Origin: Acidobacteriota bacterium | GTDB lineage: Bacteria > Acidobacteriota > Vicinamibacteria > Vicinamibacterales > JACPPN01 | Length of the DNA stretch: 53,860 bases | Direction of reading: 5' to 3' | NCBI GenBank assembly: GCA_016190995.1 | Contig: JACPPN010000241.1 | Coordinates: 1-53,860 of the forward strand | Part shown: in pieces, positions 141 to 36,631 of the stretch | Numbering within the stretch: position 1 is the first letter of the stretch | Layout: every line of letters begins with the position of its first letter | Translations under genes and position numbers: made by a program | The notes under the pieces: model-generated | Databases searched by the model: none | Seen by the model: the letters and a program-made list of their open reading frames with translations, nothing else | What the model was told of the DNA's origin: nothing

Positions 141-3100
141 TCAAATGCGGCCCACCTCAAGCGTGCGGCTGGGCATCCGTGATGAACCGCGCTTCAGGAG
201 ATTGCGACCCAGCGCGACTGCCAGCCACGCCGCCATGACGAGCGGCACCGCGCCCAGCACGAGCGCCATCCTTCGATCGATCACGCCGAGATAGTGAAGG
301 TAGAGCCACCAGAAATCGAGGCTGAACGAGAACTGTTGCGAAAAATCACGCTCTGCTTCGGCGGCGGTTCTCTCCAACGGCGGGGGAGCCTCGAGGCCGG
401 CGAGGTACCGAACGTTCCGCGGCACGGCGCGGCTGGCGGCGCACGCGTTCAGCCACAGGCCCGAGGCCGACCAGGTCGAGCTGCTCGCGGCGAAGGCGGC
501 CGGTCCGATCTGGCGCGCGTACTCCACCCGCACCTTCGAGAAATCCACGATGACGGCCGGAATCTGTACCGCGATGCTGATGACGGCGGCGGCCGTCACC
601 AGGCGTTTCCTGAACGGACGCGCGTCACGCGTCAACCAGCTGGCGAGCGGCAGGCAGACGTAAGGCAGCAGCGGCACGAGATAGCGCGGCCCGTACGAGC
701 GACCGCCGGCCCATTCCGAGAGACTCGCGTAGAGAAGCAGACACGCAACCGTCGTGGCCGCGAACAGCGCCGCCGTCGCCCGATCGCGCTTGAACATGTC
801 GATGAGCGCGACCACGCCGATGATGGCAATCGGCGTGTACACGAAGAGCGACGCATGCGGAGAGAGCAGGAGACCGGAAAGCCCAGCGAGCACCGATCCA
901 CCGAGACGTGAGCTGTCGTCGCGCAGGTAACCGGTATCGAACGGGTGGCCGAACCGCGCATGGTTGTAGGCGAGCGCGATCGCTCCTGCGATCACGACCC
1001 CGGCCGACACGTTGGCCACTCGCGTGATCCGATCGCGTACCGACGCCCGCGCCTGCCAGAAGACCCAGGCGGCGATCGGGACGGTTGCGACGAGCAGTTC
1101 GTGTCGTGTCAGGAGCGCCGCCCCGAGACACCAGCTCGCCCGGCGCAGCTTGCGCAGCGATCCCGCCTGGGCGCCGCGCCACGCGCTGTACACGCCCGCC
1201 AGCAGCCAGAACGTCGCGAGCGGTGCGCTGAAGCCGAATTTCGAGTACGGCCACAGCAACGTCGCGAACGCCGCGATGAGCGCGGTGAGGGCGGCAGCCC
1301 GGGCATCCAACGTCAGGTGTGCGGCGAACAGGAATATCAACCAGACGCATCCCGCTGCCGCCACCGCCGATCCAAGCGCGACGATCGCGCGGGGGAGCGT
1401 ATCGGGCTTTCCGATCCGGACGCCGAGCAGGCGCTCGACGCTCACGCCGGCCAGATAGAAGGGCACGTTGTACAGCGACTGACCGATGCCAAACGGCGAG
1501 TAGTACCGTCCATCCTTGCCTCGCGCCGCGTCCATGCCGGCAATGTTGCCGGCGAGCGCGATCGAGCCGTGCTCGACGAGGCTTTCGGTCAGCTCGTAGC
1601 TCACAACAGCATCGGTGGATGCGAGGCTTCCGCCAGCGGTCGCCAAGTAGGTCAGGAGCGCGATTCCTGATACGGCCAGCGCGGCGCGCTGCCACGACGG
1701 AAGCGCGCGATGCGGCTCCGGCGCGCGCGTCGCGAGGCGTCCTTGCTCGAGCAGCTCCTCGGGCGAGGGCGTGCCGACAATCTCGCCCGCCAGCTCGGTG
1801 GTTTCGACGGGCACCTGTGTTGCGCGCGGTGGCCGCAGCCGCGCGGCGATTTGGCGGATGCGATCGAGCTCCCCTGTCCTGAAAAAGCCGGTCAGGGTCA
1901 GGGTCGCCGGATAGAGGAAGAGGACAACCCCGCCGCGCGCCAGAACGCCGACGATGGGAGCGACCGAGGAGGGAACGGCGACCGACGCGACCGCGTAACT
2001 CGCGAGCCCCGCGACGATCAACCGCGCAATCCGTGCGCGCTCGTAGCGGATCCGATAGAACTTCTGCGAGAACCGGAACGCCGTCGCGGCGAGCACGCCG
2101 TACGCCAGCACGTTCGCCCACGCCGCGCCCAGGACGCCGTACCGCGGAATGAGGATCAGATTGGCGCCGACGCTGGTGACGGCGGCGAACAGGGTGGCCA
2201 CCGGGTAGTACTCGGTGTGCTTCGTGATGTTCAGGCCGATCGACGTCAGCAGGTACACGCCCTGCAGCAGCACGCCGAGCGCGATCCAGGGAATGACCTC
2301 CGCCGCTCGGAAAAACGCCGGCGTCGTCATCAGGCGCACGATGTCGGTGGCGACGGCCGAAAGCCCCGTCGCGAGGAGGATGAGAGCCGCAAGCCCGTAC
2401 GTCGTGACGGCACCGAAGGTCCGCGCGGCGTCCTTCTCCCGCATGGTCGCGAAGTAGAAGGGCGCCCATGCGTACTCGAACGCGCTCAGGAACAACTTGA
2501 GCGCCAGCCCGAAGCTCGCTCCGATCGAATAGAGACCCACTTCACGAAGCGAGACGAACAGGCTCAGGAGATATCGATCGGCCACTGCCGTGACTTGCTG
2601 CGCCACACCATGCGGCACCCGGGGCAGGCCGAAGCGCAGCGCCTCGCGAAGCATCCCAGGGGAGAACATCGGCCGCAGGAGCGGCACGAACCATCGCGCA
2701 AGCACGAACGTGAACATCACGCTGACAATGATGTCCGCCAGCACGATGCCGACGATCCCCAGCCGCGCGAACGCCACGAGAATCACGCGGGCGATCAGGG
2801 TGGCCGCCGATCGACTGAACGTCAGCGATACGAAGAGCCGGGGCTGATCCGTGATGCGCAGAACGTGGAACGGGATGAAGTAGAACCCGATGACGAAGGT
2901 GTTGACGAGCGTCAGGCGCAGAACGCCCGTGTAGCCGGGCACGCCGAAGAGTCGATCAGCGATGAGTGGAGCGGCGGCGAGCGCCATGGCGAGGCACACC
3001 CCGTTGAGCGCGAAGAGGAACACGCAGAGCGTGCTCGCAAGGCGCTGCTTGGCCCGGCGATCGGGACAGTCGTAGTACAGCCGCATGAACGACGCATCGA

Positions 3101-3287
3101 CGCCCCACCGGAAGATGATCTTCGCGACCACCTCGACCGTGAGGAGGAGGCTGATGACGCCGTAGTCGGTCGCGGAGAGAAAGCGGACGTACAACGGCAG
3201 GAGCAGGAAGCTCGCAATCGAGGTAATGACGTCACCCAGGCCGTAGATGGCGAGGTTGACGAAGAGCCCTTTGATCTTCTGAAACAC
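141..3287 (-). CDS. Fusion protein: N-terminal MOP/Wzx-type polysaccharide flippase (about aa 1-480) plus C-terminal polytopic GT-C (PMT/ArnT-like) glycosyltransferase-like domain (about aa 530-1048)
   Basis: Uninterrupted 1048-codon ORF with a GTG start at 3287, 1 nt after the TGA of the upstream methyltransferase. The N-terminus 'FVNLAIYGLGDVITSIASFLLLPLYVRFLSATDYGVISLL' plus many TM segments is typical of Wzx/RfbX flippases. After a Pro/Glu-rich linker (nt ~1697-1847), 'STDAVVSYELTESLVEHGS...GKDGRYYSPFGIGQSLYNVPFY' followed by many TM helices matches COG1807/PMT_2-type lipid-carrier-dependent glycosyltransferases. Assignment is by motif recognition only. Confidence 0.7.
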   Translation of the reverse strand: MFQKIKGLFVNLAIYGLGDVITSIASFLLLPLYVRFLSATDYGVISLLLTVEVVAKIIFRWGVDASFMRLYYDCPDRRAKQRLASTLCVFLFALNGVCLAMALAAAPLIADRLFGVPGYTGVLRLTLVNTFVIGFYFIPFHVLRITDQPRLFVSLTFSRSAATLIARVILVAFARLGIVGIVLADIIVSVMFTFVLARWFVPLLRPMFSPGMLREALRFGLPRVPHGVAQQVTAVADRYLLSLFVSLREVGLYSIGASFGLALKLFLSAFEYAWAPFYFATMREKDAARTFGAVTTYGLAALILLATGLSAVATDIVRLMTTPAFFRAAEVIPWIALGVLLQGVYLLTSIGLNITKHTEYYPVATLFAAVTSVGANLILIPRYGVLGAAWANVLAYGVLAATAFRFSQKFYRIRYERARIARLIVAGLASYAVASVAVPSSVAPIVGVLARGGVVLFLYPATLTLTGFFRTGELDRIRQIAARLRPPRATQVPVETTELAGEIVGTPSPEELLEQGRLATRAPEPHRALPSWQRAALAVSGIALLTYLATAGGSLASTDAVVSYELTESLVEHGSIALAGNIAGMDAARGKDGRYYSPFGIGQSLYNVPFYLAGVSVERLLGVRIGKPDTLPRAIVALGSAVAAAGCVWLIFLFAAHLTLDARAAALTALIAAFATLLWPYSKFGFSAPLATFWLLAGVYSAWRGAQAGSLRKLRRASWCLGAALLTRHELLVATVPIAAWVFWQARASVRDRITRVANVSAGVVIAGAIALAYNHARFGHPFDTGYLRDDSSRLGGSVLAGLSGLLLSPHASLFVYTPIAIIGVVALIDMFKRDRATAALFAATTVACLLLYASLSEWAGGRSYGPRYLVPLLPYVCLPLASWLTRDARPFRKRLVTAAAVISIAVQIPAVIVDFSKVRVEYARQIGPAAFAASSSTWSASGLWLNACAASRAVPRNVRYLAGLEAPPPLERTAAEAERDFSQQFSFSLDFWWLYLHYLGVIDRRMALVLGAVPLVMAAWLAVALGRNLLKRGSSRMPSRTLEVGRI

Positions 3288-3288
3288 G

Positions 3289-4008
3289 TCAGGGCTGCTC
3301 GGGTTTCCGGAAGCGGAGCAGATTCAGGAAGCACCAGCCGGGGACGGGTACGAGGCGCGTCAGCCAGCCGTGCAACGGCAGGAGCGTGGCGGGATGCCGG
3401 CGAATCCACTTCGTGAGAACCGGTACCGTCGGGAAGATCCCCCGCCGTTCGACGAGCTCGAACCCTGCGCTCTCGCAGAGCCGGATGAATTCCTCAGCGG
3501 GCCGATCGCCCGGGTGCTTCAGCTCGCTCGCCGTTCGAATGAGGCGTCCGCGCAGCAGGAAATGCATCCGCGACTGCAGGTGCGCCAGGTTCGGGATGGA
3601 GATGAGCAGCTCGCCGCCAGGCCGAAGCACGCGGGACAGCTCCCCGACCGCGATTCGTTGATCCGCGTACCCAAGATGTTCGAGCACGTCCAGACAGAGG
3701 ACACGGTCGAAACCGGCGTCGGGATAGGGCAGCGCGGCCAGAGACGCGTGCTTGACGCGGCCCGACGAGTAGTTGGGATCGATGCCTTCGATGGCGAGCT
3801 TCCGAGCGTACTCCTCGACGAGGATGCCTTCGCCGCAGCCGGCGTCGAGGACCCGTGTGTCCCGGGGCAGGGCGTCGAGGTACTGTCGGACAAGGCGAAG
3901 CTTCGCGAGGTAGGTCGGGTAAAACTCCCAGGAGGGCTCGAGCCGGCGGTGATAATCGCCGCGGGTGGCATACTCGCCGAGACGCAGGTTCGGCAAGGGC
4001 TCGGCCAT
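3289..4008 (-). CDS. Class I SAM-dependent methyltransferase
   Basis: 239 aa. Motif I 'VLDAGCGEGILVEEY' and the downstream 'FDRVLCLDVLEHL...VLRPGGELLISIPN' are typical of the Methyltransf_11/23 fold. Confidence 0.8.
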   Translation of the reverse strand: MAEPLPNLRLGEYATRGDYHRRLEPSWEFYPTYLAKLRLVRQYLDALPRDTRVLDAGCGEGILVEEYARKLAIEGIDPNYSSGRVKHASLAALPYPDAGFDRVLCLDVLEHLGYADQRIAVGELSRVLRPGGELLISIPNLAHLQSRMHFLLRGRLIRTASELKHPGDRPAEEFIRLCESAGFELVERRGIFPTVPVLTKWIRRHPATLLPLHGWLTRLVPVPGWCFLNLLRFRKPEQP

Positions 4009-4128
4009 GAGGGAATCGTGGATGTACGGAAGCGATCTCGTCAGACGAACAAGTCCTGACGCGTTTGTCCCACAGGACGAATTGTAGCGGAAGGACGGCC
4101 AGGTCGGGTCGGCCGCTCGGTTATCGCG

Positions 4129-5214
4129 TCAACGGGCGACGGCGCGCGCCCGAAGAGCGATCGCGCCCGCACCTCGCACGCGCACCGCAGGACTGTCCGC
4201 ACGCAGCATCTGGCGCAAGGTGGAGACCGGACCACGTGCCGCCGTCGTCAGAATGCGAGCAGCCTCCTTCTGGACCACCGGATTCGGATCCTGCACCGCT
4301 TCGCCCAGGACGGCCAGCGCATCGGGATCTTCGGGGAGCAGGAGCTCGGCGGCGTAGAGATAGGTCAGGCCGTCGCGATCGTGGAGCAGCGGCAGGAGCG
4401 CGGGCACCCATGACGGGTCGGCCGCTGCCGCGAGACCCTTCGCCGCCACGAGGCGAAGGTCGGGCGCCTCGCTTTGAAGCGCCTCCGACAGCACGGCATC
4501 GCCGCCCGCGTCTCCCAGGCGCTTCAGGGACGCTGCCGCGCTCACACGAACCAGAACCGAAGGATCGTCCAGGGCGGGACGCAGTGTGTCGACGGCCGTT
4601 GCATCGCCCAGCGTGCCAAGCGCCGCGGCGGCGGTGGCGCGCGGAAGAATCTCCGGATCCGCGAGCAATCTCGCGAGCGTTGGGAGACTTCCCCCATCGC
4701 CGACCTCCCCCAGCGCCTGGATTGCAGCGACGCGGATGTTGGGTGGGCCGGCCTCCGCCAACCCATTCAGACGCGACACGGCGGTTCGATCACCGCTGCG
4801 CGCCGCCGCCTGCAGAGCGGGGACATCGCCGGACGCCGCCGTCTGTCCGGTGAGCGACTGCCTGGCCTGCCGATCGCCGGCACGAGCCAGCGACTCGATG
4901 GCCTCGACGCGCACATCCGGGGCGTCCGAGCGCGAGAGCTCGAGAAGTTCCGCACGCGCGATCGTCGCGAGCAGCGGCAGGTCCTCGTTGCCTGTTTGCG
5001 CGATGAACTGCTCGTAGGCCGACAGCGCCTGCCGCGTGTTCTTCCCGGCGAGCGCCGACTCGATTCGCTGAGCGGCCGCGCGCCGACCCGGCGCCTGTCC
5101 TTCCGCCGCGATTCCCGGCGCAGGAAGTCCTGCCGTGAATGCGAGCGCGCACACCAGGGGTGACACGATCACGGTGAAGCTCTGATTTAAACCTCTCATC
5201 GTCATCGATCTCAA
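4129..5214 (-). CDS. Secreted HEAT-repeat (PBS-lyase HEAT-like) protein
   Basis: 361 aa. N-terminal signal-like 'FTVIVSPLVCALAFTAGLPAPGIAAEG'. Repeated units include 'PDVRVEAIESLARAGD', 'NIRVAAIQALGEVGD', 'PRATAAAALGTLGD', 'VLVRVSAAASLKRLGD', 'PDLRLVAAKGLAAAAD' and 'NPVVQKEAARIL'. Confidence 0.75.
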   Translation of the reverse strand: MRSMTMRGLNQSFTVIVSPLVCALAFTAGLPAPGIAAEGQAPGRRAAAQRIESALAGKNTRQALSAYEQFIAQTGNEDLPLLATIARAELLELSRSDAPDVRVEAIESLARAGDRQARQSLTGQTAASGDVPALQAAARSGDRTAVSRLNGLAEAGPPNIRVAAIQALGEVGDGGSLPTLARLLADPEILPRATAAAALGTLGDATAVDTLRPALDDPSVLVRVSAAASLKRLGDAGGDAVLSEALQSEAPDLRLVAAKGLAAAADPSWVPALLPLLHDRDGLTYLYAAELLLPEDPDALAVLGEAVQDPNPVVQKEAARILTTAARGPVSTLRQMLRADSPAVRVRGAGAIALRARAVAR

Positions 5215-5340
5215 GCCTTGACCGCGGAGGGCGCCGAGAGCGCACAGGAATGACCTTTCCTAATCGCCGCGTGGCTCCCCGTTCTCCGACCGGTGAAAGC
5301 TCTTGACGCGGGATCCAGGAGGATCAATGTAGGACAGTCG

Positions 5341-6660
5341 CTACTTGTACCTGAAGCCGTTTGCCAGCGTGCCGCTCTGGCTGTCCGGGTTCGTCACGAC
5401 GACATCCACCAGTCCCGCGGCATGCGGAGGGGAAATCGCCAGTATCGTGGTCTTGCTGATGACCTGGACGTTGGTCGCGGGTACGCCACCGAGCGTGACC
5501 GTCGCGCCCACGACGAAATCCGTGCCCATCAGACGGAGGGGCATTCCTCCGCCAACAGGGCCTTCCAGGGGAAGAACGCGCGTGACGGTGGGCGCGGGCA
5601 CCTGCGCCTGGTACGTATAGCCGTTCAGCAGGGCTCCCGACTGCAGGTCCGGGTTGGTCACCAGGACGTTGAACGTTCCTGCCGAGCGCGGTCCGGTGAG
5701 CGCCGTGATCGTGGTTGAATTCAACACCTGCACGTTGGTGGCCGCCGCGCCGCCAATCGACACGATGGCGCCGTTGGCGAAATAGAGGCCGGTAATCGTG
5801 ATGGGCGTGCCGCCCGCCGTGCTGCCCTGGTTCGGATTGACGCTCTGGACGATGGGCGCCGGGGCGGGCACACCCGCGACGTAGGTGTAGCCGTGGTAGA
5901 TCATCCCCGACTGTCCGTCAGGATTGGTGACGATGACGTTGACAATGTCGGGGGCGCGAGGCGCCGTGAACGCCGTAATCGTATTCGAGTCGACGACCAC
6001 GACGTTGGTGGCCGCCACCTTGCCGATCAACACCGTGGCTCCCGCAACGAAGTATGCCCCGTTGATCGTGACGAACGTGCCGCCCGCCGTGCTGCCCTGG
6101 TTCGGCGTGATTGTCTGCGGAGCTGGCGCCGACGCCTGGCCGGGCGGAACGTAGGTGTACCCGTGGATCAGGATGCCGGACTGGCCGTCGGGATTCGTCA
6201 CGAGGACGTTCACGAAATCCGCGGCCCGCGGCCCGGTCACCGCCGTGATGGTCGTGGAATCGACGACCACGACGTTCGAAGCCGAGACCTTCCCGATCTT
6301 CACGGTCGCGCCGTTGCCGAACCCGGTGCCGCGAATCGTCACCGGGGTCCCGCCGGCCGTGCTCCCCTGGTTCGGCGAAACGCTCTGAACCGTCGGCGCC
6401 GGTGCCGCGACGTACGTGAAGAGCGCCGTTGCGGTCTGCCCGTCGAGGTTGGTGACGACGAGATTGACGGCGCCTGGGGCATGCGGCGGCGTGACACCCG
6501 TGATAGTGGTGCTTTGAACGACGAGATTCGTTGGCGCGGACCCGCCGATCGTCACCGTGGTTCCCTCGCCGAAATTGAGGCCGGTGATCGTGAACGGCGT
6601 ACCGCCCAGGCTCGTGCCCTGGTTCGGGCTGAGATTCTGAATGATGGGAGGCGGCGCGAA
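5341..6660 (-). repeat. Five tandem coding repeats (about 252-270 bp each) encoding the IPT/TIG domains
   Basis: A 29-nt block 'gtgccgcccgccgtgctgccctggttcgg' occurs at 5807 and again, identically, at 6077. A near-copy 'gtcccgccggccgtgctcccctggttcgg' is at 6347 (270-bp period) and a more diverged copy is near 6599. Confidence 0.8.
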
Positions 6661-8244: not shown

Positions 8245-8430
8245 CCACCGCCATCCGAATAGGGATGTGACAAGAGTTCGAATGTATTGTTGGGCTTCGG
8301 GTCTGCTGCTGGGACGGCAAGGCCGAAGAACGCGACACACTGTAAGGGATTGGTGCGGATCGGTCAAGCGGGGTGAGCGCCGGAACGTAGGCGGGCGTCG
8401 CCCACGACCGACCGCCGGTCCGATTACGGA

Positions 8431-11959: not shown

Positions 11960-11972
11960 GATTGAGGTCCGT

Positions 11973-15751: not shown

Positions 15752-15770
15752 GGCAACGTCGCCTGCGGGG

Positions 15771-19772: not shown

Positions 19773-19892
19773 TCGATTCTTTCAACCTGAATCCGACGTC
19801 AAAAGCTCTCACCGCGGAGCACGCGAAGGACGCGGAGACTGGGAAAACCAGGCAATTCACATCCTCTCGTTGGCGAGAGCGTGCGGCGACCC

Positions 19893-22033: not shown

Positions 22034-22824
22034 GGCTGCGTATCCTTGGATTCGCGCGGGCGCTGAATTCCCGCGGTTCCGGGCTGGAAATCAGGCGAAG
22101 GGTTGGTCGATCGCTTGTGCTGCTGCTGGACCACGAGCTGCAGCCATAGCTTCATGACATCGACACCGGTGCGAAAGATGCGACGAAAATTGAAGAACTG
22201 CGACTTGCCGAACGCGCGGTGGTAATGATGAACCGGCACTTCGGCGATCCGGAAGCCCGCATCCTGGATCTTCTTCATCATCTCGAGGCAGATGACACCG
22301 CTGTTCTTCTCCAGGAGCACGCGATCGAAGATGGCCTTTCGCATCAGCCGGAAGTCGCAGTCGACGTCCCGCACTCGCAGACCGAAGAGGATCTTGACGG
22401 TGTGGTGATAGACGCGGCCGATGAGCCTTCGGTGTAATGGATCGGATCTGCTGATCTTGTAGCCGTTCACGAGATCGATTCCGTCCCGCATGGCGGCCCA
22501 CAGCGTCTCGAGCTCGAACGGGTCGTACTGAGCGTCGCCGTCGGTATAGAAGATGAGCTCTTTCGTCGAGGACGCGAATCCTGTCCGGAGCGCGCCGCCG
22601 TACCCGCGATTCTCCGGGTGATGGATGACCCGCACTTCGGGGTACATACGGGCGAGCTCGTCAGCGATCTGGGGGGTCGGGTCGGCGCTCCCGTCGTTGA
22701 CGACGATGACCTCAAAGTCGGAGGTCAGCTTGCGCGCGGCCTGCCGTGCCGTGACGACCATGCTGGCGATCGTCCCGCTGTCGTTGTACGCGGGAAAAAA
22801 GATGGTGAGCCCGGAGTGCTTCAT
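22030..22824 (-). CDS. GT2 glycosyltransferase, Dpm1/polyprenyl-phosphate glycosyltransferase-like (soluble type)
   Basis: 'LTIFFPAYNDSGTI...FEVIVVNDGSADPT...NRGYGGALRTGF...ELIFYTDGDAQYDP' is the classic GT-A/GT2 signature. This is the first gene of the long minus-strand operon. Confidence 0.85.
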   Translation of the reverse strand: MKHSGLTIFFPAYNDSGTIASMVVTARQAARKLTSDFEVIVVNDGSADPTPQIADELARMYPEVRVIHHPENRGYGGALRTGFASSTKELIFYTDGDAQYDPFELETLWAAMRDGIDLVNGYKISRSDPLHRRLIGRVYHHTVKILFGLRVRDVDCDFRLMRKAIFDRVLLEKNSGVICLEMMKKIQDAGFRIAEVPVHHYHRAFGKSQFFNFRRIFRTGVDVMKLWLQLVVQQQHKRSTNPSPDFQPGTAGIQRPRESKDTQP

Positions 22825-22935
22825 CGACCTGAATGACAGCGCATCGAAGCCGTAAACCTTACCATAGCAATCACTTGAACGACAAGAGAGGCAGCCGCGA
22901 GCATCGCGCGCGGTACGGCGCTACACTCGAAGTCT

Positions 22936-23559
22936 ATGCGTGCCGCTCAATGGCTGGCGATCGGAATCGTCCTTGTTCTCTCCGATTGCTCCGATCTCCA
23001 GGCCATCAACTTGGCGCTCAGCCGGTCGGACCTCGAGCGTGCGGTGGCGCTGGCGCGCTGGCCCCATTCCGACAGCGACCGGGCCCGATTCCACGCGCCC
23101 TACATTGTCGCGGTCAAGGGCCTTCTCGTCGATTACGTCATCGTCGATCGCATTGAAGTCATCACCGGGTTCCGCCGCCTTGAGCTCCTCGCGGAAGAGC
23201 ATGCGCGCCTGAACGACCTGTGGGGCCGGCCCGGCGTCCGCGACGCAGAGGAAGCGCTGCGTCCATGGCGCGATCGCGTTTCGATCGTGGCGCACCTCCG
23301 TTTCCAGGTGGCGAACCAGTACATCACCGGCGTTCCGCCCGTCGCCGTTGCGCTCGGTGAGCCTGAGCCAGTGGCACCAATCGACGTGCGCCGCCTGGGG
23401 ATGTACCGCAGTGATGATCACGGTTCGGTGCTGATTGGCGCGACGGTCGAGACGACGTTCGACGCGAGATCCGTGGGACAGACGGTCCGCCAGGTTCTCG
23501 TGCGCTGGGACGGAAGGGAGCTGGCTCGCGCGACGATGGACTTCGCGCGGCTGGAGTAG
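22936..23559 (+). CDS. Hypothetical exported protein (possible lipoprotein, non-canonical lipobox)
   Basis: This is the only plus-strand gene in the island. Codon third positions are GC-rich and the composition is normal, unlike the overlapping Arg-rich minus ORF 22921-23790. The N-terminus 'MRAAQWLAIGIVLVLSDCSD' is signal-like. No family was recognised. Confidence 0.55.
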   Translation: MRAAQWLAIGIVLVLSDCSDLQAINLALSRSDLERAVALARWPHSDSDRARFHAPYIVAVKGLLVDYVIVDRIEVITGFRRLELLAEEHARLNDLWGRPGVRDAEEALRPWRDRVSIVAHLRFQVANQYITGVPPVAVALGEPEPVAPIDVRRLGMYRSDDHGSVLIGATVETTFDARSVGQTVRQVLVRWDGRELARATMDFARLE

Positions 23560-23572
23560 CGGCCCTGGTCGG

Positions 23573-24802
23573 TCATGCCGGCGTGACGCGGTCGTAGATC
23601 TCCTCGAACGTCTTGGCAACGCGATCCCATCCATGCTGCTGCAGCATCGCCTGACGTGCCGCGAGACCAAGGTGCCCTCGACGAATCGGATCTTCCAGCA
23701 CTGATGCAATCCGCGCGGCCAGTCCCTCGGCGTCACGCTCCGGCGCGACGAGCGCCGTCTCGCCGTCCACCACGATCGACTGGATGCCACCCGCCGAGGT
23801 GGTCACGACGGGCGTTCCCGACGCCAGCGCCTCCATCAGGGTATTCGGCAGACCGTCGACGTTTCCCGACTCATCCCGCACGGACGGAATGACGACGACG
23901 TCGGCAGCCGCCAGATGCATGGCGATCCGCTGCTGAGGAATCACACCGGCGAATCGAACGTGCGACGCGAGGCCGCCTGCCGCAGCTCTGCTGCGCAGCT
24001 CGGATTCGAGGTCACCGCCACCCGCGACAACGAGACGGAGGTCGGGCCACCGGGGCACCAGGCGCGCGACGGCGTCGATCAGGTACTCGAACCCCTTCTT
24101 ACGAACCAGCCGGCCCGCCGTGAACAGCATCGGCGTCGCCTGGGAAATGCCGAGCTGCCCGCGCACCAAGGCGCGAGCCTCCGGGTCGGGTTTGAAGCGG
24201 CCGGCATCGACGCCGTAGGGCACCACGTCGAAGCGGTCGGCTGGCGCCCCGATGGCTATCGCTCGGCGACGCAGATCGTCGCTGCAGGCCGTTATCCAGC
24301 TCGCGCGCCGAAGTGTCGCCCGCCCGGCGCATCTCACGGTCGCATGCCGCTCCGCGACGTACACGTCCGAGCCGTGCAGGCTCACGACGACCGGGATCGA
24401 TCCCGCCACTGCGGACGCGATCGTTCCGCCGGGGACCATCCAATGACCGTGGAGGATCGTCGCGCCCTCGCGCACCGCGACCGTTCGAGCCGCACGCATG
24501 CCCGCGACGAGCGCGAGCGGTGCGACGAGCCACGCCGACAGCCGAAGGTCCGTGTCCGCCCGGAGGGCGCCCGAGTATCCGAAGACGTTCAGACGGCGGA
24601 GGGGAGCGTACTTGAAGAAATGAAACGAGACGTTCCCTTCGCGGCTCGGCCGGTCGAGGCGCGGATGCCACGGCGCAACCACGTGGACGGAGTGACCGCG
24701 TGCGGCGACGCCGTGCGCGACGGGCTCGAGAAACGTGGCGATCGTATCCCCGGGGAACCGGGGATACGAGGTCGTCACCATGACGACGATGTGACGGCTC
24801 AT
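23573..24802 (-). CDS. Glycosyltransferase family 4 (GT-B, GT1/GT4-type)
   Basis: The true start is the ATG at 24802 ('MSRHIVVMVTTSYPRFPGD'), forming an ATGA overlap with the upstream stop. 'LFTAGRLVRKKGFEYLIDA...LVVAGGGDLE...ADVVVIPS...ESGNVDGLPNTLMEALASGTPVV' is the GT4 EX7E region. Confidence 0.85.
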   Translation of the reverse strand: MSRHIVVMVTTSYPRFPGDTIATFLEPVAHGVAARGHSVHVVAPWHPRLDRPSREGNVSFHFFKYAPLRRLNVFGYSGALRADTDLRLSAWLVAPLALVAGMRAARTVAVREGATILHGHWMVPGGTIASAVAGSIPVVVSLHGSDVYVAERHATVRCAGRATLRRASWITACSDDLRRRAIAIGAPADRFDVVPYGVDAGRFKPDPEARALVRGQLGISQATPMLFTAGRLVRKKGFEYLIDAVARLVPRWPDLRLVVAGGGDLESELRSRAAAGGLASHVRFAGVIPQQRIAMHLAAADVVVIPSVRDESGNVDGLPNTLMEALASGTPVVTTSAGGIQSIVVDGETALVAPERDAEGLAARIASVLEDPIRRGHLGLAARQAMLQQHGWDRVAKTFEEIYDRVTPA

Positions 24803-25524
24803 GCGGCTCGACGTTCGGATGACCAGAGCTTTCGAAGGACGAGACGCCAGGGCGTCAACAGCGCTTCGAGCATCACGCGCTTCGACATCTTCGAGGTGCC
24901 CTGCCGGCGCTCGACGAAGACAATCGGCACCTCCGCGATCCGGAAGCCGAGCCGCGACGTCTCGTACAGCATCTCGAACTGGAAGGCGTAGCCTTCCGAC
25001 ACGATGCCGCGTTCGAGCACACGGACCAGCGCCTCGCGGCGCCAGCAGCGGAACCCGCTCGAACAATCGTGGACCGGGAGCCGCGTGACCGTGCGGACGT
25101 AGCGGTTCGCAAAGACGCTCAACGCCAGGCGGTGGAGGGGCCAGTTCACGACGCTGACGCCTTGCAGATACCGCGAGCCCAGGACCAGATCGTTCGTCCT
25201 CGACGCCTCGACCATGCCCGGGAGGTACTTCGGATCGTGGGAAAAGTCGGCGTCCATCTGACAGATGACGTCGGCCTCCGACTTCACTGCCCGCGACATG
25301 CCCTCGATGTACGAGCGGCCCAACCCTTTGACGCCGGTGCGGCGAAGCACCTCGATCCGTCCGGGATACTCCCGGGCGAGCTCTTCGGCAACCTCGCCTG
25401 TGCCGTCCGGCGACCGGTCGTCGACGACCATGACCCGATAGCCGTCGTGGCGCATGAGGTCGCCGACCAGGAGCGGCAGGTTGTCGCGCTCGTTGTAGGT
25501 CGGGATGATGATGAGCACGTTCAT
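24799..25524 (-). CDS. Polyprenol-monophosphomannose synthase-like GT2 (Ppm1/Dpm1 family)
   Basis: The likely start is the ATG at 25524 ('MNVLIIIPTYNERDNLPLLV'). 'VMVVDDRSPDGTGEVAEELAREYPGRIEVLRR..KGLGRSYIEG...QMDADFSHDP' is near-textbook Dpm1/Ppm1. Confidence 0.85.
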   Translation of the reverse strand: MNVLIIIPTYNERDNLPLLVGDLMRHDGYRVMVVDDRSPDGTGEVAEELAREYPGRIEVLRRTGVKGLGRSYIEGMSRAVKSEADVICQMDADFSHDPKYLPGMVEASRTNDLVLGSRYLQGVSVVNWPLHRLALSVFANRYVRTVTRLPVHDCSSGFRCWRREALVRVLERGIVSEGYAFQFEMLYETSRLGFRIAEVPIVFVERRQGTSKMSKRVMLEALLTPWRLVLRKLWSSERRAA

Positions 25525-25537
25525 GACGGCCACCGGG

Positions 25538-26812
25538 TCACGCGCGACCGAACCGCGCCGCGGCACAGACGATAAGCGTCGGGTCGATGATGGGAATGCG
25601 GAAGCGCTCCTGCGGAAAATACACCAGACAGACGAGCACGGCCGATCCGGCGAGCAGCCATAACGTGACAGGCCGCCGCTTTGCGCGCCACATCTTCAGG
25701 AAGCCGGCAACGGCCAATGGCAGCGTGACGCCGTACGCCAGCACGGACGCGGCGTAGTACCGCATGGAGTGCAGCCGGTACGACGGCCCGATCGGAACCC
25801 ACACATAGAAGAACTTTCGCACGAGGAGCCAGCTCCAGTCGACCGGATGCGCGGCGATGTACGCCAACGCCTCGCGATAGTAGATCGGCTCGAGTTGTTC
25901 GGCGGTCAGACCCGGGTGCCGGCGCCGGAGCTCGATATCGGCGCGCTTGATTTCCGGATTTGCCGCCATGTCGCCCTCGCCGCGCGCCAGTGGGTTGTTG
26001 CCCGTCCAGAACGTAATGCCGCCCTGCGAGGACACCAGCACGACCCGCTCGTACTGGCGGACGTTCCTGACGGTCCAAGGCGCCAGCACAAGCAATGTGG
26101 CGGCGGCGAATGCGACGCCAGGCCGCCAAGCGCGGTGCCACCCGAGCCACGCGACGACCAGGAGGACGAAGTAGATCGTCGCCGGCCGCGTGAGAATCGC
26201 CGCGCCGGTCAGGATGCCGGCGGCGGCGACCGGCGCCACAGACGAGCGGTGGCGATCGAGCTCGCGATCGACGGCTGGACCGAGCAGCGCCGCTGCCGCG
26301 AGAGCCAAGACCGAGTAGAGCGTTTCGCTGAGCGCATAGGCGCAGATCCAGACGAGCGGCGGATACACCGCCGTCAGAAACGCTGCCGCAACCCCGGCGC
26401 GCCTGCCTGCCACCCGTCGCGCCAGTCCGCTCACAATCCAGACACCCAGCGCGCCGAGGAACGCCTGCACGATCTTCAACGGCGCGGGGGTCGATTGCGG
26501 ATCCCGCTCGAGCGCGCCGCGACCGACGACCGCCGCCACGAACAACGGATAGACGGGAACCCGTCCGAACTGTTCGGGCGGCAGCTCGTCTTCGCGAACC
26601 GGCGGCGTGTCGTACGCGAACCCCCGTCCGCTGGCGAGATTCTTTGCGAGCGCCAGATACTCCCGCTCGTCGTGTGTCAAAGGCCGGCCGAGCCAGTACG
26701 TCAGGCCGAATCCGAGCCGCAGGATCAAGCCGAGCACGACGGCGACGAGGATGAGACGCCGCGCCCGATCAGTGCTAGGCGGCAACGCGGCGTGGTTGAT
26801 CGCGGTGGTCAT
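25538..26812 (-). CDS. GT-C membrane glycosyltransferase, ArnT/PMT family
   Basis: 424 aa and polytopic. The first-loop motif 'PLTHDEREYLALAKNLASGRGFAY' resembles the ArnT/PMT 'DExRYA' loop. Confidence 0.8.
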   Translation of the reverse strand: MTTAINHAALPPSTDRARRLILVAVVLGLILRLGFGLTYWLGRPLTHDEREYLALAKNLASGRGFAYDTPPVREDELPPEQFGRVPVYPLFVAAVVGRGALERDPQSTPAPLKIVQAFLGALGVWIVSGLARRVAGRRAGVAAAFLTAVYPPLVWICAYALSETLYSVLALAAAALLGPAVDRELDRHRSSVAPVAAAGILTGAAILTRPATIYFVLLVVAWLGWHRAWRPGVAFAAATLLVLAPWTVRNVRQYERVVLVSSQGGITFWTGNNPLARGEGDMAANPEIKRADIELRRRHPGLTAEQLEPIYYREALAYIAAHPVDWSWLLVRKFFYVWVPIGPSYRLHSMRYYAASVLAYGVTLPLAVAGFLKMWRAKRRPVTLWLLAGSAVLVCLVYFPQERFRIPIIDPTLIVCAAARFGRA

Positions 26813-26845
26813 GAGCGGGAACGGCGTGCGGCCCGAGCCGGCGCG

Positions 26846-27715
26846 TCAGTCCTGATAATTGCGCCCCTCGAATCGCAAGGCGGCGATCTGTTCCGAGACG
26901 AGGCCGACCAGGAACACGATGACGGACAGCATGATGAGCAGCACGGACGAGTTCGTCACGTGCGATTGCGTCGCGATCGTCCACGCGGCGTACCCTGCGC
27001 CGACGAGGAACGCAACGCCGCTCACCGGGAGGAACACACGCAGCGGACTGAAGATCGTGATTACCCTCAGGAGAATCAGGAAGAACTTGACGCCGTCGCG
27101 GGCGAGCCGGATCTTGCTGTGACCCACCCGCGGTCGTGCCTCGGTCGGCTCGAATCCGACGTTGTATCCCGCCTTGATGAACGCCAGCGTCGTCGTGGTC
27201 GGAGTCGAGAACCCGTTCGGCAACAGGTGCAGGAACTCGCGCAGGTACACCCGCCGTGCGGCCCGAAAGCCGGATGTCAGATCCGGGATCGGATGTCCCG
27301 TGAGATAGCTTGCGAGCCAGTTCAGCAGCCGATTGCCCCACAGCCGCACCGCGTTGGCCTGCGAGGCGCTCGCGCGCGCCCCGACGACGAGATCGTACTC
27401 GCCGAGTCGTGCGACGAGCCGTGTCGCATCGTCGGCGCGATGCTGCCCGTCACCGTCGAGGATCAGGACGAACTCGCCGGTCGCGCGGCGGATGCCGGTC
27501 TTCACCGCCGCGCCATTGCCTTTGTTGTACGGATGGCGGATGACTTCGGCGCCCGCCCCGACGGCGCGGGTCGCCGTCTCGTCCGACGACCCATCATCGA
27601 CGACCAGGATCTCGTGCCACCTGGCCGCCGAGCGTAGCGCGGCCACGACCTCGCCGATGGCCGCGGCTTCGTTGCAGGCCGGAATGACGATCGAGGTCGA
27701 TCCCGCGTCGGCCAT
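26846..27715 (-). CDS. GT2, GtrB/ArnC-like polyprenyl-phosphate glycosyltransferase with C-terminal TM pair
   Basis: 'SIVIPACNEAAAIGEVV...ILVVDDGSSDET...YNKGNGAAVKTGI...VLILDGDGQH' is followed by two C-terminal hydrophobic helices ('ITIFSPLRVFLPVSGVAFLVGAGY', 'VLLIMLSVIVFLVGLV'). Confidence 0.85.
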   Translation of the reverse strand: MADAGSTSIVIPACNEAAAIGEVVAALRSAARWHEILVVDDGSSDETATRAVGAGAEVIRHPYNKGNGAAVKTGIRRATGEFVLILDGDGQHRADDATRLVARLGEYDLVVGARASASQANAVRLWGNRLLNWLASYLTGHPIPDLTSGFRAARRVYLREFLHLLPNGFSTPTTTTLAFIKAGYNVGFEPTEARPRVGHSKIRLARDGVKFFLILLRVITIFSPLRVFLPVSGVAFLVGAGYAAWTIATQSHVTNSSVLLIMLSVIVFLVGLVSEQIAALRFEGRNYQD

Positions 27716-28717
27716 TCAGCGTTCCCAGCCTTCCGGCCGTCTCGTGCTGGCCGCGAGCTCGCGCGGCGACGCGGCGTCGGACAGCTCGATGGACCGGACG
27801 CGGTACAGAAGATCTTCGATGAGCTTGCGGTTGCCGGAGATGACGTCGGCAAGCAGCCCGATGAGCAGCGTCTGGAATCCGACAATCATCAGGACCGCTG
27901 ACAGAATCAGCGACTGCAGGTGACCGAGACCGTCACCGATGTAGTAGTAGTAGAGAAACCGCGCCGAGATCAGGAACCCGCCGGTGAAAATGAGCAACCC
28001 GATGTACGTAAACACCTTCAGCGGCTCGTACATCGCGTAGATCCGCACGATCGTCGCGGCCGATTTCTTGATGTACGAGAAGACGCTGCCGAACAGCCGC
28101 GAGTCGCGGGTGCGGGGATTCGTGCTCACCGGGACATGCGCGATCGCCATCCGCTGCTTGCCTGCCTGGATGATCGATTCGAGCGTGTACGAGAACTCCG
28201 AGATGATCGTCATGTGCAAGGCGGCGTCCCGCGTGTAGGCGCGCAGGCCACTGGTCGTGTCCGGCACCTGCGTGTTCGAGACCTGCCGGACGACCCAGCT
28301 TCCGAGACGTTGCAGCCACTTGCGCGTGGCGGTGAGATGCTCGAGCTCCCGGATATTACGATCGCCGATGACGATGTCCGCGTCGCCGGCGATGAGCGGC
28401 GCCAGCAGCTTCGGGATGTCCTGCCCCGTGTACTGGTTGTCGCCGTCGGTGTTGACGATGTAATCGGCCCCGAGCTTCAGGCAGGCATCGATGCCGGCGC
28501 CGAACGCGGCCGCCAGCCCTTTACGGCGGCGAAAGCGCACGATGTGGTGAACCCCGCAGCTTCGCGCCACCGACACCGTGTCGTCCTGCGAACCGTCATC
28601 GATGACCAGCGTTTCGATGCGATCGATTCCGGGAATGCTTGGCGGTAGATCGCGGAGCGTCGCCGGCAGCGTCGCTGCCTCGTTGAGGCACGGGATCTGG
28701 ATGATGAGCTTTGCCAC
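27716..28717 (-). CDS. GT2, GtrB/ArnC-like polyprenyl-phosphate glycosyltransferase with C-terminal TM pair (tandem paralog)
   Basis: The likely GTG start at 28717 ('VAKLIIQIPCLNEAATL') follows the upstream TAG at 28725; the track ORF to 28870 overlaps the upstream gene. 'LVIDDGSQDDT...NTDGDNQY' is followed by two C-terminal TM helices. Its stop directly abuts the next start (TGAATG). Confidence 0.8.
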   Translation of the reverse strand: MAKLIIQIPCLNEAATLPATLRDLPPSIPGIDRIETLVIDDGSQDDTVSVARSCGVHHIVRFRRRKGLAAAFGAGIDACLKLGADYIVNTDGDNQYTGQDIPKLLAPLIAGDADIVIGDRNIRELEHLTATRKWLQRLGSWVVRQVSNTQVPDTTSGLRAYTRDAALHMTIISEFSYTLESIIQAGKQRMAIAHVPVSTNPRTRDSRLFGSVFSYIKKSAATIVRIYAMYEPLKVFTYIGLLIFTGGFLISARFLYYYYIGDGLGHLQSLILSAVLMIVGFQTLLIGLLADVISGNRKLIEDLLYRVRSIELSDAASPRELAASTRRPEGWER

Positions 28718-28724
28718 GAGCGGA

Positions 28725-29768
28725 CTACCCGACCACGAGCTTCTCGACGACGCCGTCCCAGGTGACTTGGCGCGCCCGATCATGCCCCGCATCCCCAAGG
28801 CGTGCGGCGCGGCGACGATCCGCCGCGAGATCGTTGATCGCCACCGCGACCCCGTCGGGTCGCGCCTCACAGATCCGTCCGTTGACGTCGTCGATCACGA
28901 ATTCCAGCGGACCTCCCGAATCAACGGCCGTAATGACCGGCTTGCGCGCCAGGAAGGCCTCGAGCGTCACGTACCCATAATCCTCGTCGAAGGGCGCGTA
29001 AGCGACGGCGAGGGCGCCCGCATACAACTCGATCAACGCTTCGTCGTCGATCGTGCCGAGGAAATCCACACGATCCGCGACGCCTGCCTCCTCGGCGAGG
29101 CGTTCCACCGCAGGCCGGGCGGTCCCGTCGCCCGCCACAACGAGACGAACCGGCCGGTCGACGTGGCCCATCGCCTGCACCAGCAGGTCGACCCGCTTGA
29201 CCGCCTCGATGCGGCCGACCGACAACACGTAGTCGCCATACGGGCCCGGGCGCAGGCGATCGGCGAGCCGCGGGGGATGGTACAGCGGTTCGGCCTCCAG
29301 GCCTGTGTACTTCCGCAACCGGTCCGCCGTGTTGCGCGCGTTCGAGAAGAGGCGGCGGCACTCGGAGAGCATCTCGCGGTCGAGGCGCATCAGCGTGTCG
29401 CGGAGCCCGACATCGCTCTCGATGAAATCGAAATCGCTGTAGGGCGTCCCGCACAGATCGTACGCGGCCCGATACTGGTGGATGAGCCACGCCACCTTGT
29501 TCGGGTGCCGAACGAAGTACGATGGGAACTTCGATCCGATCGCCAGATCGACCGGCTGGCCGTTGCTCTCGGCGAGGTCGATCAGACGCCAGGCGGCCGC
29601 GTGCGCGAGGATTTCTTCCTTCGGGTACCACTTGAAGGGAATGCTAACCAGCTCGGCGTCGTACCCCTGGGCGCGCAGTTGGTTGACGAGTTCCCGGACG
29701 TGGTATTCGGCTCCGCCCCGAACGAACGGAACCTGCGCCTCGCAGACGACCACGGTCCGCACCGCCAT
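28725..29768 (-). CDS. Glycosyltransferase family 4 (GT-B)
   Basis: 347 aa. 'VLSVGRIEAVKRVDLLVQAM...LVVAGDGT...ALAVAYAPFDEDYGYVTLEAFLARKPVIT' is the GT4 C-terminal signature. Confidence 0.85.
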   Translation of the reverse strand: MAVRTVVVCEAQVPFVRGGAEYHVRELVNQLRAQGYDAELVSIPFKWYPKEEILAHAAAWRLIDLAESNGQPVDLAIGSKFPSYFVRHPNKVAWLIHQYRAAYDLCGTPYSDFDFIESDVGLRDTLMRLDREMLSECRRLFSNARNTADRLRKYTGLEAEPLYHPPRLADRLRPGPYGDYVLSVGRIEAVKRVDLLVQAMGHVDRPVRLVVAGDGTARPAVERLAEEAGVADRVDFLGTIDDEALIELYAGALAVAYAPFDEDYGYVTLEAFLARKPVITAVDSGGPLEFVIDDVNGRICEARPDGVAVAINDLAADRRRAARLGDAGHDRARQVTWDGVVEKLVVG

Positions 29769-36620: not shown

Positions 36621-36631
36621 GTGTCGTTCCC

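Follow-up and report, generated by a model that had tools for sequence, protein, structure and literature searches.

A probable transmembrane glycosylation locus of Vicinamibacteria with several polyprenyl-phosphate sugar synthases, a Wzx/MOP-type flippase, and multiple GT-C transferases

Several described glycosylation systems, including GtrA/B/C, ArnC/E-F/T, CsbB/GtcA/YfhO, and GacI/J/K/L, share a logic in which a family 2 glycosyltransferase (GT2) charges polyprenyl phosphate with a sugar, a flippase exports the product, and a GT-C transferase transfers the sugar outside. The concept of three- and four-component transmembrane glycosylation was set out by Mann and Whitfield in 2016, as cited in PMC10821137. 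The same logic most likely applies to a gene island of ~30 kb from an Acidobacteriota bacterium of the class Vicinamibacteria. The window analyzed here is a complete contig of 53,860 nt (GC ~66%) from a soil metagenome-assembled genome (MAG), and the genes of the island all lie on the minus strand, running from position 29768 down to 141. The region is probably a class-conserved Vicinamibacteria envelope glycan locus that encodes a multi-module polyprenyl-monophosphate donor/flippase/GT-C transmembrane glycosylation system. Multi-component transmembrane glycosylation is already a known kind of system; new here are the number of donors and transferases gathered into a single operon-like cluster, the conservation of this cluster throughout the class next to the dcw cell-division genes, and the recurrent adjacency or fusion of flippase and GT-C. 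An initial, sequence-only reading of the contig had found no match to a described pathway; no characterized locus does match, but the island fits this known kind of system.

Wzx-type flippases that act on monophosphate-linked donors upstream of a GT-C have been shown or suggested in the cases of GacK and WpsG, within the sets GacI/J/K/L and WpsA/B/G/J (PMC10821137, PMC9574508), and a MATE-family flippase has been proposed to work with a GT-C in O-antigen pentofuranosylation (PMC11127046). Direct evidence of flippase activity is still missing for the proteins proposed in three-component systems (PMC11127046). In the Wps and Agl systems, a monophosphate-linked sugar is lengthened in the cytoplasm, flipped, and transferred en bloc by a GT-C, while separate dolichol-phosphate (Dol-P) or undecaprenyl-phosphate (Und-P) monosaccharide systems add the final sugars (PMC10821137, PMC3871713). 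In the Rgt system, several polytopic transferases draw on a bactoprenyl-phosphate sugar to attach galacturonic acid (GalA) to lipid A and core (PMC7663294).

The principal components of the island are four GT2s, one flippase domain, and four GT-C proteins, with transmembrane (TM) segments predicted by a crude hydropathy scan.

22030-22824, minus strand: GT2a, soluble ArnC-like polyprenyl-phosphate glycosyltransferase without TM segments
24799-25524, minus strand: GT2b, soluble Dpm1/DPMS-like polyprenyl-phosphate mannose/hexose synthase
26846-27715, minus strand: GT2c, GtrB/ArnC/AglJ-like polyprenyl-phosphate glycosyltransferase with a C-terminal TM pair
27716-28717, minus strand: GT2d, GtrB/ArnC/AglJ-like polyprenyl-phosphate glycosyltransferase with a C-terminal TM pair
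1728-3287, minus strand: Wzx/MOP-type flippase domain (residues 1-520 of the 1048-aa open reading frame (ORF) at 141-3287), ~12-14 hydrophobic segments
141-1727, minus strand: fused GT-C domain (residues 521-1048 of the same ORF), LA_3751/3752-like, TDAVV..E acidic motif after the first TM segment
8431-10038, minus strand: GT-C 8431, PMT_2 family, window-specific accessory, GIDQG motif after TM1
17262-19772, minus strand: 836-aa GT-C, signature gene of the locus; its C-terminal periplasmic domain combines alpha/beta and beta-sandwich parts
25538-26812, minus strand: 424-aa minimal GT-C, PLTHDEREY motif (invariant in its family) after TM1

GacK is a precedent for a Wzx-type flippase, the type encoded in the island, in such a role (PMC10821137). 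Unlike the Gtr, Arn, Csb, and Gac systems, the island combines four GT2s with two to four unrelated GT-Cs in a single cluster. Unlike Gtr, Arn, and Gac, it lacks a GtrA, small multidrug resistance (SMR), or GacJ-type small protein, its flippase is fused or adjacent to a GT-C, and many sugar-tailoring genes are embedded in it; a scan of the intergenic gaps for small ORFs found none of the GtrA, ArnE/F, or GacJ type. The island is conserved across a class and is thus no strain-variable or phage-borne decoration.

The lactococcal Wps system is similar in logic: a GacI-like GT2 primes undecaprenyl monophosphate, cytoplasmic glycosyltransferases extend the product, a Wzx-type flippase exports it, and GT-Cs polymerize and attach it, with extra GT2/GT-C systems adding side-chain glucose and no diphosphate-forming primer present (PMC10821137, PMC9574508). 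Wps differs in being Gram-positive, with a rhamnan acceptor, an activator (WpsB), and a regulator (WpsI), whereas the host of the island is diderm and the island includes a GT9 gene. The Agl system of Haloferax volcanii (PMC3871713) likewise uses an AglJ-type GT2 on dolichol monophosphate, which further glycosyltransferases extend, together with a separate Dol-P-mannose synthase (AglD), a Wzx-like flippase (AglR), two GT-Cs (AglB and AglS), and a methyltransferase (AglP). However, Agl is archaeal, AglB contains the WWDxG motif that the GT-Cs of the island do not have, and GT2c and GT2d score only ~125-133 against the AglJ cut-off of 325.

In the rhizobial Rgt system (rgtD, rgtF, and rgtE; PMC7663294) and other periplasmic LPS decorations, as may hold for the island, a bactoprenyl-phosphate sugar synthase feeds several polytopic transferases, which share one lipid-linked donor and modify lipid A and core from the periplasmic side. 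The likeness is again one of logic. Rgt has a single donor (GalA) and dispersed genes, while the island has four distinct synthases and is linked to lipopolysaccharide (LPS) through its GT9 alone. The mycobacterial pathway to phosphatidylinositol mannosides, lipomannan, and lipoarabinomannan (PimA/PimB', Ppm1, and PimE/Mpt/Emb/Aft; PMC12041525, PMC3229680) shares with the island cytoplasmic GT4s, a soluble DPMS-like synthase, and a series of GT-Cs acting outside; PimE is a fold neighbor of the 424-aa GT-C, although the match is weak (E 3e-3). This pathway belongs to another phylum, and the island has no inositol-lipid enzymes or decaprenyl-phosphoarabinose genes.

The four GT2s all match PF00535 with 75-100 bits, and their closest relatives in the PDB are ArnC, Pyrococcus furiosus DPMS, and GtrB, which bears out the Dpm1/ArnC/GtrB-type identities proposed by the sequence-only reading. 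The same reading had assigned the GtrB/ArnC-style C-terminal TM pair to the last two enzymes, and the hydropathy scan restricts it to GT2c and GT2d. By family-level similarity the GT2s belong to the polyprenyl-phosphate glycosyltransferase clade, and the QxxRW motif of processive synthases, with which they might have grouped, is found in none of the four. GT2a matches ArnC structures at 2e-20 and the ArnC model NF007986 at 77.9 bits (cut-off 529). GT2b aligns to P. furiosus DPMS (5mlz) at 1.8e-33 over 229 residues and contains a DAD motif, but reaches no NCBIfam equivalog. GT2c matches ArnC at 1.3e-15, GtrB (5ekp) at 1.7e-6, and the AglJ model at 132.6 bits (cut-off 325); GT2d matches ArnC at 1.1e-10, in an alignment spanning residues 3-294 that includes the TM region, and scores 124.5 bits on the AglJ model, also below the cut-off. 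The top NCBIfam models for the set are ArnC, PgfS, AglJ, PpgS, and Dol-P-hexose transferase. All of these scores fall far under the equivalog cut-offs, and sugar specificity can therefore not be read from them. The pairwise identity among the four GT2s is just 26-34%.

The four GT-C proteins share no pairwise BLAST similarity and therefore represent four distinct families. Sequence and profile searches against PDB chains yielded no relative for any of them, and assignment to the GT-C class relies on structural models for two proteins and on profile comparisons for the others. The 836-aa protein, locus tag HYX76_10440, whose public gene call begins one residue later than the ORF in the window, has no Pfam match above threshold. 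Its AlphaFold2 model, built from 36 homologs, has a pLDDT of 90.6, and its 30 best Foldseek matches in the PDB are all GT-Cs (AglB, STT3, PglB, ALG9/12, EmbB, ArnT, DPY19, AftA, and Pmt4), with the C-terminal domain showing a weak likeness to carbohydrate-binding modules. The 424-aa protein, which scores slightly under the PMT_2 gathering score, gave a model with a pLDDT of 90.0 and top matches to AglB, ArnT, STT3, ALG9, Pmt4, PimE, and ALG3. No Wzy, WaaL, or SEDS chain is among the 50 matches listed for either model. Both proteins are thus confirmed as GT-Cs by high-confidence models and Foldseek, and the similarity of these models to AglB and STT3 is generic to the GT-C fold. They constitute two well-modeled families that are new in having no solved structure related to them by sequence; the 836-aa family is also mostly without a Pfam assignment.

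GT-C 8431 and the fused GT-C are confirmed as members of the class by Pfam and profile-profile comparison. GT-C 8431 scores 29 bits on PMT_2 (gathering score 26.1), a model matched by 26 of the 35 members of its family, and the family aligns by hhalign with that of the 424-aa protein (probability 96.6%, E 6.8e-10) such that GIDQG is placed opposite THDEREY. A metagenome pattern scan for GT-C 8431 retrieved a single distant relative, which carries no information on pairing with TIG proteins. The fused GT-C scores 31.2 bits on PF02366 PMT (gathering score 22.7), matches the LA_3751/3752 family NF047440 at 8.2e-23, and aligns with the 424-aa family at a probability of 79.8% (E 1.5e-5); a stand-alone ortholog with 40% identity is present in one related locus, L024. 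Candidates for the acidic residues that GT-Cs conserve in the first extracytoplasmic loop after TM1 were read from alignments. D47 and E50 are invariant within PLTHDEREY of the 424-aa family, D51 is nearly invariant in GIDQG of the GT-C 8431 family, D39 is invariant across the 3 aligned sequences of the fused GT-C, and E119 and D126 are invariant in the 836-aa family. The four membrane proteins that had been read as GT-Cs are accordingly upheld as such, two by AlphaFold2 and Foldseek and two by Pfam and hhalign, and the ligase or polymerase identity that would have overturned the reading gives way to a GT-C fold.

The ORF at 141-3287 encodes, by profile matches, a Wzx/MOP flippase fused in frame to a GT-C. 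The flippase domain scores above the gathering score on both PF13440 (47.4 bits) and PF01943 (40.4 bits, gathering score 28.2), the match spanning residues 11-320, and its top NCBIfam model is the holdfast flippase HfsF, below the cut-off. Its orthologs, at 50-60% identity in ~26 related loci, are stand-alone proteins of ~515-530 residues. The downstream DNA is visible in 25 relatives, and in 14 of them a PMT_2-type GT-C ORF with an LPxxYNPDE motif begins at or overlaps the stop of the flippase, with 3 others having a weaker GT-C-like ORF at this place. Flippase followed by GT-C is seen at ~20.5-20.8 kb in loci L005, L011, L033, L037, L042, L049, L055, L059-L061, L065, L075, and L077. Members of the LPxxYNPDE family also form in-frame fusions with the flippase in three further assemblies (P0123, P0126, and P0127), giving four independent assemblies with fusions in all, and the GT-C fused in the window is from a different family. 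The presence of two unrelated GT-C families beside orthologous flippases looks like non-orthologous partner replacement, and since both are adjoined or fused to orthologous flippases, the arrangement argues for a functional coupling of flippase and GT-C. No description of a Wzx-GT-C fusion was found in the literature searched. In several relatives, such as L002 (20928-22427), the flippase is followed by radical SAM/SPASM and B12-binding radical SAM genes in place of a GT-C.

The locus is widespread among Vicinamibacteria. The 836-aa GT-C has >1,500 full-length homologs at 50-56% identity, and 221 species-level genomes contain a relative of it; the best 80 of these 221 are almost all Vicinamibacteria/Vicinamibacterales and are all MAGs. 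Gene order is retained at ~50-78% protein identity in dozens of Vicinamibacteria genomes, and the island is therefore not a product of chance. The conserved order runs from ychF through GT4, GT2d, GT2c, the 424-aa GT-C, GT2b, GT4, GT2a, the second short-chain dehydrogenase/reductase (SDR2), DegT, and the 836-aa GT-C to GT9, the GT-B-like gene, the UXS-type SDR, the radical SAM/SPASM gene, the methyltransferase, and the flippase. The dcw-ychF neighborhood is also retained on one contig of 1.9 Mb. Counts of individual genes cover 49 related loci with full 10-kb flanks; those for GT2s are paralogue-aware and, owing to flank length, lower bounds. The 836-aa GT-C is present in 49/49 loci and the 424-aa GT-C in 40/49, compared with two for the fused GT-C and none for GT-C 8431. 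Best-assigned orthologs of GT2a, GT2b, GT2c, and GT2d are found in 28, 38, 41, and 36 of the 49 loci, respectively. Public annotations of the relatives are generic, and none describes the gene set as a characterized O-antigen or exopolysaccharide (EPS) locus, an identity that would have spoken against the sequence-only reading. The literature, searched for glycosylation in Vicinamibacter/Acidobacteria, likewise yielded no description of this locus or its product.

The remaining genes of the island comprise sugar-tailoring enzymes, cytoplasmic glycosyltransferases, and accessory proteins.

3289-4008, minus strand: S-adenosylmethionine (SAM)-dependent methyltransferase (Methyltransf_23, Methyltransf_11)
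4129-5214, minus strand: secreted HEAT-repeat protein, accessory (HEAT_2 6e-30; N-terminal hydrophobic segment)
5341-8367, minus strand: secreted protein with Calx-beta (3e-18) and five IPT/TIG stretches (TIG 1.9e-64), accessory
10035-10988, minus strand: radical SAM/SPASM enzyme (PF04055, PF13186)
10985-11959, minus strand: UDP-glucuronate decarboxylase-type SDR, UXS/ArnA-C family (top PDB match human UXS1, 1.5e-54)
11973-13838, minus strand: membrane-anchored SGNH/AlgX-like protein, putative glycan O-acyl-modifying enzyme, accessory here (Lipase_GDSL_2, ALGX)
13835-15853, minus strand: GT-B-like 'surface carbohydrate biosynthesis' protein, 672 aa (TIGR04326 2.3e-16 and TIGR04396 4.9e-12, below cut-off)
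15771-16979, minus strand: GT9 glycosyltransferase, heptosyltransferase family (PF01075 2.3e-38)
19893-21008, minus strand: DegT/ArnB/PseC-type sugar aminotransferase (PF01041 8e-108)
21005-22033, minus strand: SDR2, second nucleoside diphosphate (NDP)-sugar SDR, epimerase/dehydratase type (Epimerase 1.5e-46)
23573-24802, minus strand: GT4, GT-B fold, cytoplasmic (Glycos_transf_1, Glyco_transf_4), in 49/49 loci
28725-29768, minus strand: second GT4, first island gene beside ychF (Glycos_transf_1 2.9e-28), in 28/49 loci, a count limited by flank length

The list of accessory genes given by the sequence-only reading stands, except that its 'ArnA-like' SDR is nearer to UXS1 and that its 'GT-B' enzyme is recognized by weak matches only. 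The SDR is closer to UXS1 than to ArnA (~1e-34), scores 174.6 bits on NF008872 (cut-off 294), and has a best-assigned counterpart in 38/49 loci. The GT-B-like protein, found in 39/49 loci, has further weak matches to Epimerase_2 and DUF6716, and its true start is probably near 15751; that of the TIG protein is probably the Met at ~8244. The radical SAM/SPASM gene occurs in 39/49 loci at 78% identity and has GTGA overlaps on both sides. The methyltransferase, in 35/49 loci at ~70% identity, lies immediately upstream of the flippase with a median gap of 14 nt. DegT (36/49 loci) scores 200.6 bits on the PseC model and 194.6 bits on that of ArnB, both under the cut-offs, and SDR2, with a distinct ortholog in 25/49 loci, has UDP-hexose 4-epimerase and CDP-tyvelose 2-epimerase as its top PDB matches. 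GT9, which 48/49 loci contain, follows the 836-aa GT-C directly at a median gap of 30 nt and reaches the cut-off of the heptosyltransferase II model TIGR02195 marginally (135.6 bits against 134.6); no genes for ADP-heptose synthesis were seen in the window. Residues 349-369 of GT9 hold four cysteines near the C-terminus (CSPC-x10-C-x6-C) that may form a metal-binding finger. The SGNH protein has five N-terminal hydrophobic segments; in many relatives, an SGNH+MBOAT pair between DegT and the 836-aa GT-C takes its place.

Comparison of the 49 loci points to a conserved core with variable slots. The core consists of the four GT2s, two GT4s, the 424-aa and 836-aa GT-Cs, GT9, the GT-B-like protein, two SDRs, DegT, the radical SAM enzyme, the methyltransferase, and the flippase. 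Strain-specific additions, as judged from gene presence, are the SGNH protein (1/49 loci), GT-C 8431, the TIG protein (1/49), the HEAT protein (4/49), and the particular GT-C fused to the flippase. The sequence-only reading had described four synthases matched one to one by four transferases. As a property of the system, this pairing does not hold and is specific to the genome: distinct GT2 genes, counted as lower bounds, number four to five in 18 of the 49 loci, three in 18, two in 7, and one in 6, and relatives typically have three to four such GT2s with two to three GT-Cs. Two side observations concern the fate of the locus in particular lineages. In locus L085 (7043-12744), a GT4-GT2-GT2-GT-C(424 aa)-GT2-GT4 cassette occurs without ychF or dcw, next to a different GT4 set on the opposite strand, which suggests that this block is a mobile or modular unit. 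On a 3.36-Mb Vicinamibacterales contig (L001/L008), the locus is broken and shortened by IS1595 and two DDE_Tnp_1 copies at locus coordinates ~5.9-6.9 kb and 14.1-19.8 kb, and an SDR is fragmented; the locus can therefore decay in some lineages.

The mechanism proposed for the island is drawn throughout from family membership. In the cytoplasm, the UXS-type UDP-GlcA decarboxylase, SDR2, DegT, the radical SAM/SPASM enzyme, and the methyltransferase would tailor nucleotide sugars. At the inner face of the membrane, the four GT2s would charge polyprenyl phosphate with a different sugar each, that of GT2b probably being mannose or another hexose and that of GT2a probably an amino sugar; GT2a is joined by GTGA overlaps and translationally coupled to SDR2 and DegT. 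The two GT4s, GT9, and the GT-B-like enzyme would build the acceptor glycan or lengthen one of the lipid-linked sugars. The Wzx/MOP-type flippase would then carry the lipid-linked donors to the periplasmic face, where the GT-Cs would pass the sugars onto an envelope acceptor. The types of GT2 and GT-C enzyme present therefore favor periplasmic transfer from lipid-linked donors over a Wzy- or ABC-dependent pathway, as the sequence-only reading had proposed. That reading had also reported no Wzy, Wzz, Wza, or ABC exporter, which Pfam bears out, but it had overlooked the Wzx/MOP flippase in the N-terminal half of the ORF at 141-3287. Its restriction to single-sugar steps is not established, the flippase together with the GT4s, GT9, and GT-B-like enzyme making en bloc transfer equally possible.

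For the acceptor, the LPS core or lipid A is weakly favored and remains a tentative choice, its sole pointer being the GT9 that adjoins the 836-aa GT-C and is marginal on a WaaF-type model. Another envelope glycan or lipoglycan may be considered on a similarly tentative basis, and a protein acceptor is unlikely. The encoded surface protein that the sequence-only reading had offered as a candidate fails in this general role: the TIG and HEAT proteins rarely accompany the locus in relatives and therefore cannot be its general acceptor.

Several points weigh against the interpretation of the island as a donor/flippase/GT-C system. The four GT2s lie well under the equivalog cut-offs, and hence their donor sugars are guesses. 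MOP flippases classically carry diphosphate-linked oligosaccharides. The fusions of flippase and GT-C all come from MAG assemblies, and as the two ORFs overlap in unfused relatives, single-base indels could mimic a fusion. The GT2:GT-C stoichiometry varies in relatives, such that some GT2s may have distant partners or may prime oligosaccharides, and a single GT9 that barely reaches its threshold carries the assignment to LPS. A gene for a priming enzyme could lie in another part of the genome, the evidence spanning one contig of 54 kb, and every proposed step is drawn from sequences and structural models.

A Wps/Agl-like en bloc pathway is a possible variant of the donor/flippase/GT-C interpretation rather than its opposite, and is viewed here with reserve. 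An AglJ/GacI-like GT2 would prime polyprenyl monophosphate, the GT4s, the GT-B-like enzyme, and maybe GT9 would extend the product, and the Wzx-type flippase would export it; outside, the flippase-associated GT-C, and possibly the 836-aa GT-C as well, would transfer or polymerize it onto a glycan, lipid, or protein, with other GT2/GT-C pairs adding side branches. Extension on a monophosphate carrier before flipping would explain why a Wzx-type flippase and four cytoplasmic GT-B-type enzymes occur without a priming phosphoglycosyltransferase; no match to PF02397 or PF00953 was found in the island, the sole PF00953 protein of the window being MraY in the dcw cluster. AglJ is the top model of GT2c and GT2d, compact relatives hold more GT2s than GT-Cs, the flippase adjoins a GT-C or is joined to one in a fusion, both modeled GT-Cs have AglB as their nearest structural neighbor, and precedents are described (PMC10821137, PMC9574508, PMC3871713). 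However, the AglB/STT3 fold matches have low TM-scores (0.3-0.55) that any GT-C_A enzyme would be expected to reach, a chain-length regulator is lacking, and the GT9 family normally acts on Kdo-lipid A and not on polyprenyl-linked intermediates. A regex scan also found the WWDxG oligosaccharyltransferase motif in none of the four GT-Cs; an identity of these proteins as oligosaccharyltransferases (STT3/PglB/AglB) was rejected on this ground.

Protein glycosylation, with secreted proteins, the TIG/Calx-beta protein among them, as targets of O-mannosylation or other glycosylation by the PMT-like GT-Cs, is an improbable account of the locus. Actinobacterial Pmt O-mannosylates secreted proteins using polyprenyl-P-mannose. 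The DPMS-like GT2b adjoins a PMT_2-type GT-C, the matched Pfam families are named for protein mannosyltransferases, and GT-C 8431 lies 63 nt upstream of the secreted 5-TIG protein, whose repeat region is ~20% Ser+Thr. However, hardly any related locus contains the TIG or HEAT protein or GT-C 8431, so that this account would fit, at best, an accessory module specific to the window. PMT_2 is also broad for a GT-C family, with ArnT-like transferases for lipids and glycans among its members; MIR domains are lacking, and the conserved core holds a GT9 and many glycan-building enzymes.

A bona fide Arn pathway, leading from UDP-GlcA through UDP-Ara4N and undecaprenyl-P-Ara4N to the lipid A phosphate and to resistance against cationic peptides, is very unlikely. 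The UDP-GlcA decarboxylase-type SDR, the score of DegT on the ArnB model (194.6 bits), the ArnC structures as top matches of GT2a, and ArnT among the fold neighbors of both modeled GT-Cs are all in keeping with it. The equivalog models are nevertheless missed by wide distances (ArnC 77.9 of 529, ArnB 194.6 of 631, ArnA 141.5 of 777, and ArnT 18.1 of 567), and neither a formyltransferase domain nor an ArnD deformylase/deacetylase or ArnE/F SMR match was found in the ORFs or gaps of the island. The decarboxylase, besides being nearer to UXS1 than to ArnA, lies apart from DegT and GT2a, and the pathway would account for at most one of the four GT2s. A strict Arn pathway was rejected on the basis of the missed models, the unmatched formyltransferase, ArnD, and ArnE/F, and the UXS1-like SDR.

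A canonical Wzx/Wzy O-antigen/EPS locus, with Wzy or WaaL among the polytopic proteins, would suit the Wzx-family flippase and the several cytoplasmic glycosyltransferases, yet it is highly implausible, as both conserved membrane proteins are confidently modeled as GT-C_A enzymes, GT-C 8431 and the fused GT-C match PMT_2/PMT, the Pfam search of the island found no Wzy (Wzy_C), WaaL, Wzz, Wza (Poly_export), ABC exporter, or priming transferase, and the four ArnC/Dpm1-type GT2s would have no role save the addition of side branches.

Taken to its fullest extent, the interpretation of the island as a donor/flippase/GT-C system would mean that Vicinamibacteria make a class-wide, undescribed envelope glycoconjugate wholly on polyprenyl-monophosphate carriers, following Agl/Wps logic in a diderm, with a Wzx-type flippase physically coupled to a GT-C, by adjacency and in some lineages by fusion, to channel flipping and transfer, and with the locus tied to dcw. 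This extended version is speculative, and we consider it doubtful.

The layout of the island is compact. Four-nucleotide start/stop overlaps (GTGA, ATGA, and TTGA), from which the sequence-only reading had described the genes as chained, were found at six junctions, and the other gaps are mostly short. The largest, of 748 nt (22825-23572), is the sole large gap of the island and holds an orphan ORF on the plus strand (22936-23559, 207 aa) with a signal-peptide-like N-terminus, which breaks the co-directional chain; it has no Pfam match and no homolog among 82 related loci. An ORF on the minus strand at 22921-23790, arginine-rich and without a Pfam match, was judged spurious. Promoter and terminator scans gave nothing above the shuffled expectation, and the only match of the Rfam and tRNA scans was a tRNA-Met beyond the island.

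On its right, the island is flanked by ychF (29942-31120) and then, divergently oriented, by a full dcw cluster with rsmH, ftsI, murE/F, mraY, murD, ftsW, murG, murC, ftsQ, ftsA, and ftsZ. The FtsI/PBP3 of this cluster (32995-35076, plus strand) has a C-terminal PASTA domain (35.4 bits), the host being presumably diderm; PASTA domains are usually linked to Gram-positive proteins of the PBP2x/PknB type. An ORF of 861 aa (35492-38077, plus strand), in which Mur-ligase domains are confined to the C-terminal half (residues 426-845), overlaps another of 533 aa (35019-36620, plus strand); the boundaries of murE and murF are tentative. Gene calls in one relative, L084, combine Transpeptidase with Mur ligase and Mur ligase with MraY, which suggests fusions or miscalls. 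A B12-binding radical SAM gene is located just past ftsZ (48624-50369, plus strand), and the right end of the contig contains an RNase H/RVT_3-type gene (52118-52705, minus strand) and the tRNA-Met (53520-53595, minus strand), both unrelated to the island.

Vicinamibacteria (Acidobacteriota subdivision 6) recur in many surveys of soil microbiomes. The conserved 17-gene core beside the cell-division cluster provides a handle on what these bacteria display at their surface, and that surface matters for soil aggregation, recognition by phages, and survival of desiccation. The four polyprenyl-phosphate sugar synthases, the two modeled GT-C families, and the set of radical SAM, UXS, and aminotransferase enzymes may lead to donor sugars and CAZy GT-C families not yet described. 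That Wzx/MOP flippases repeatedly adjoin GT-Cs or are fused to them would be genetic evidence of a direct hand-over of lipid-linked donors to the GT-C.

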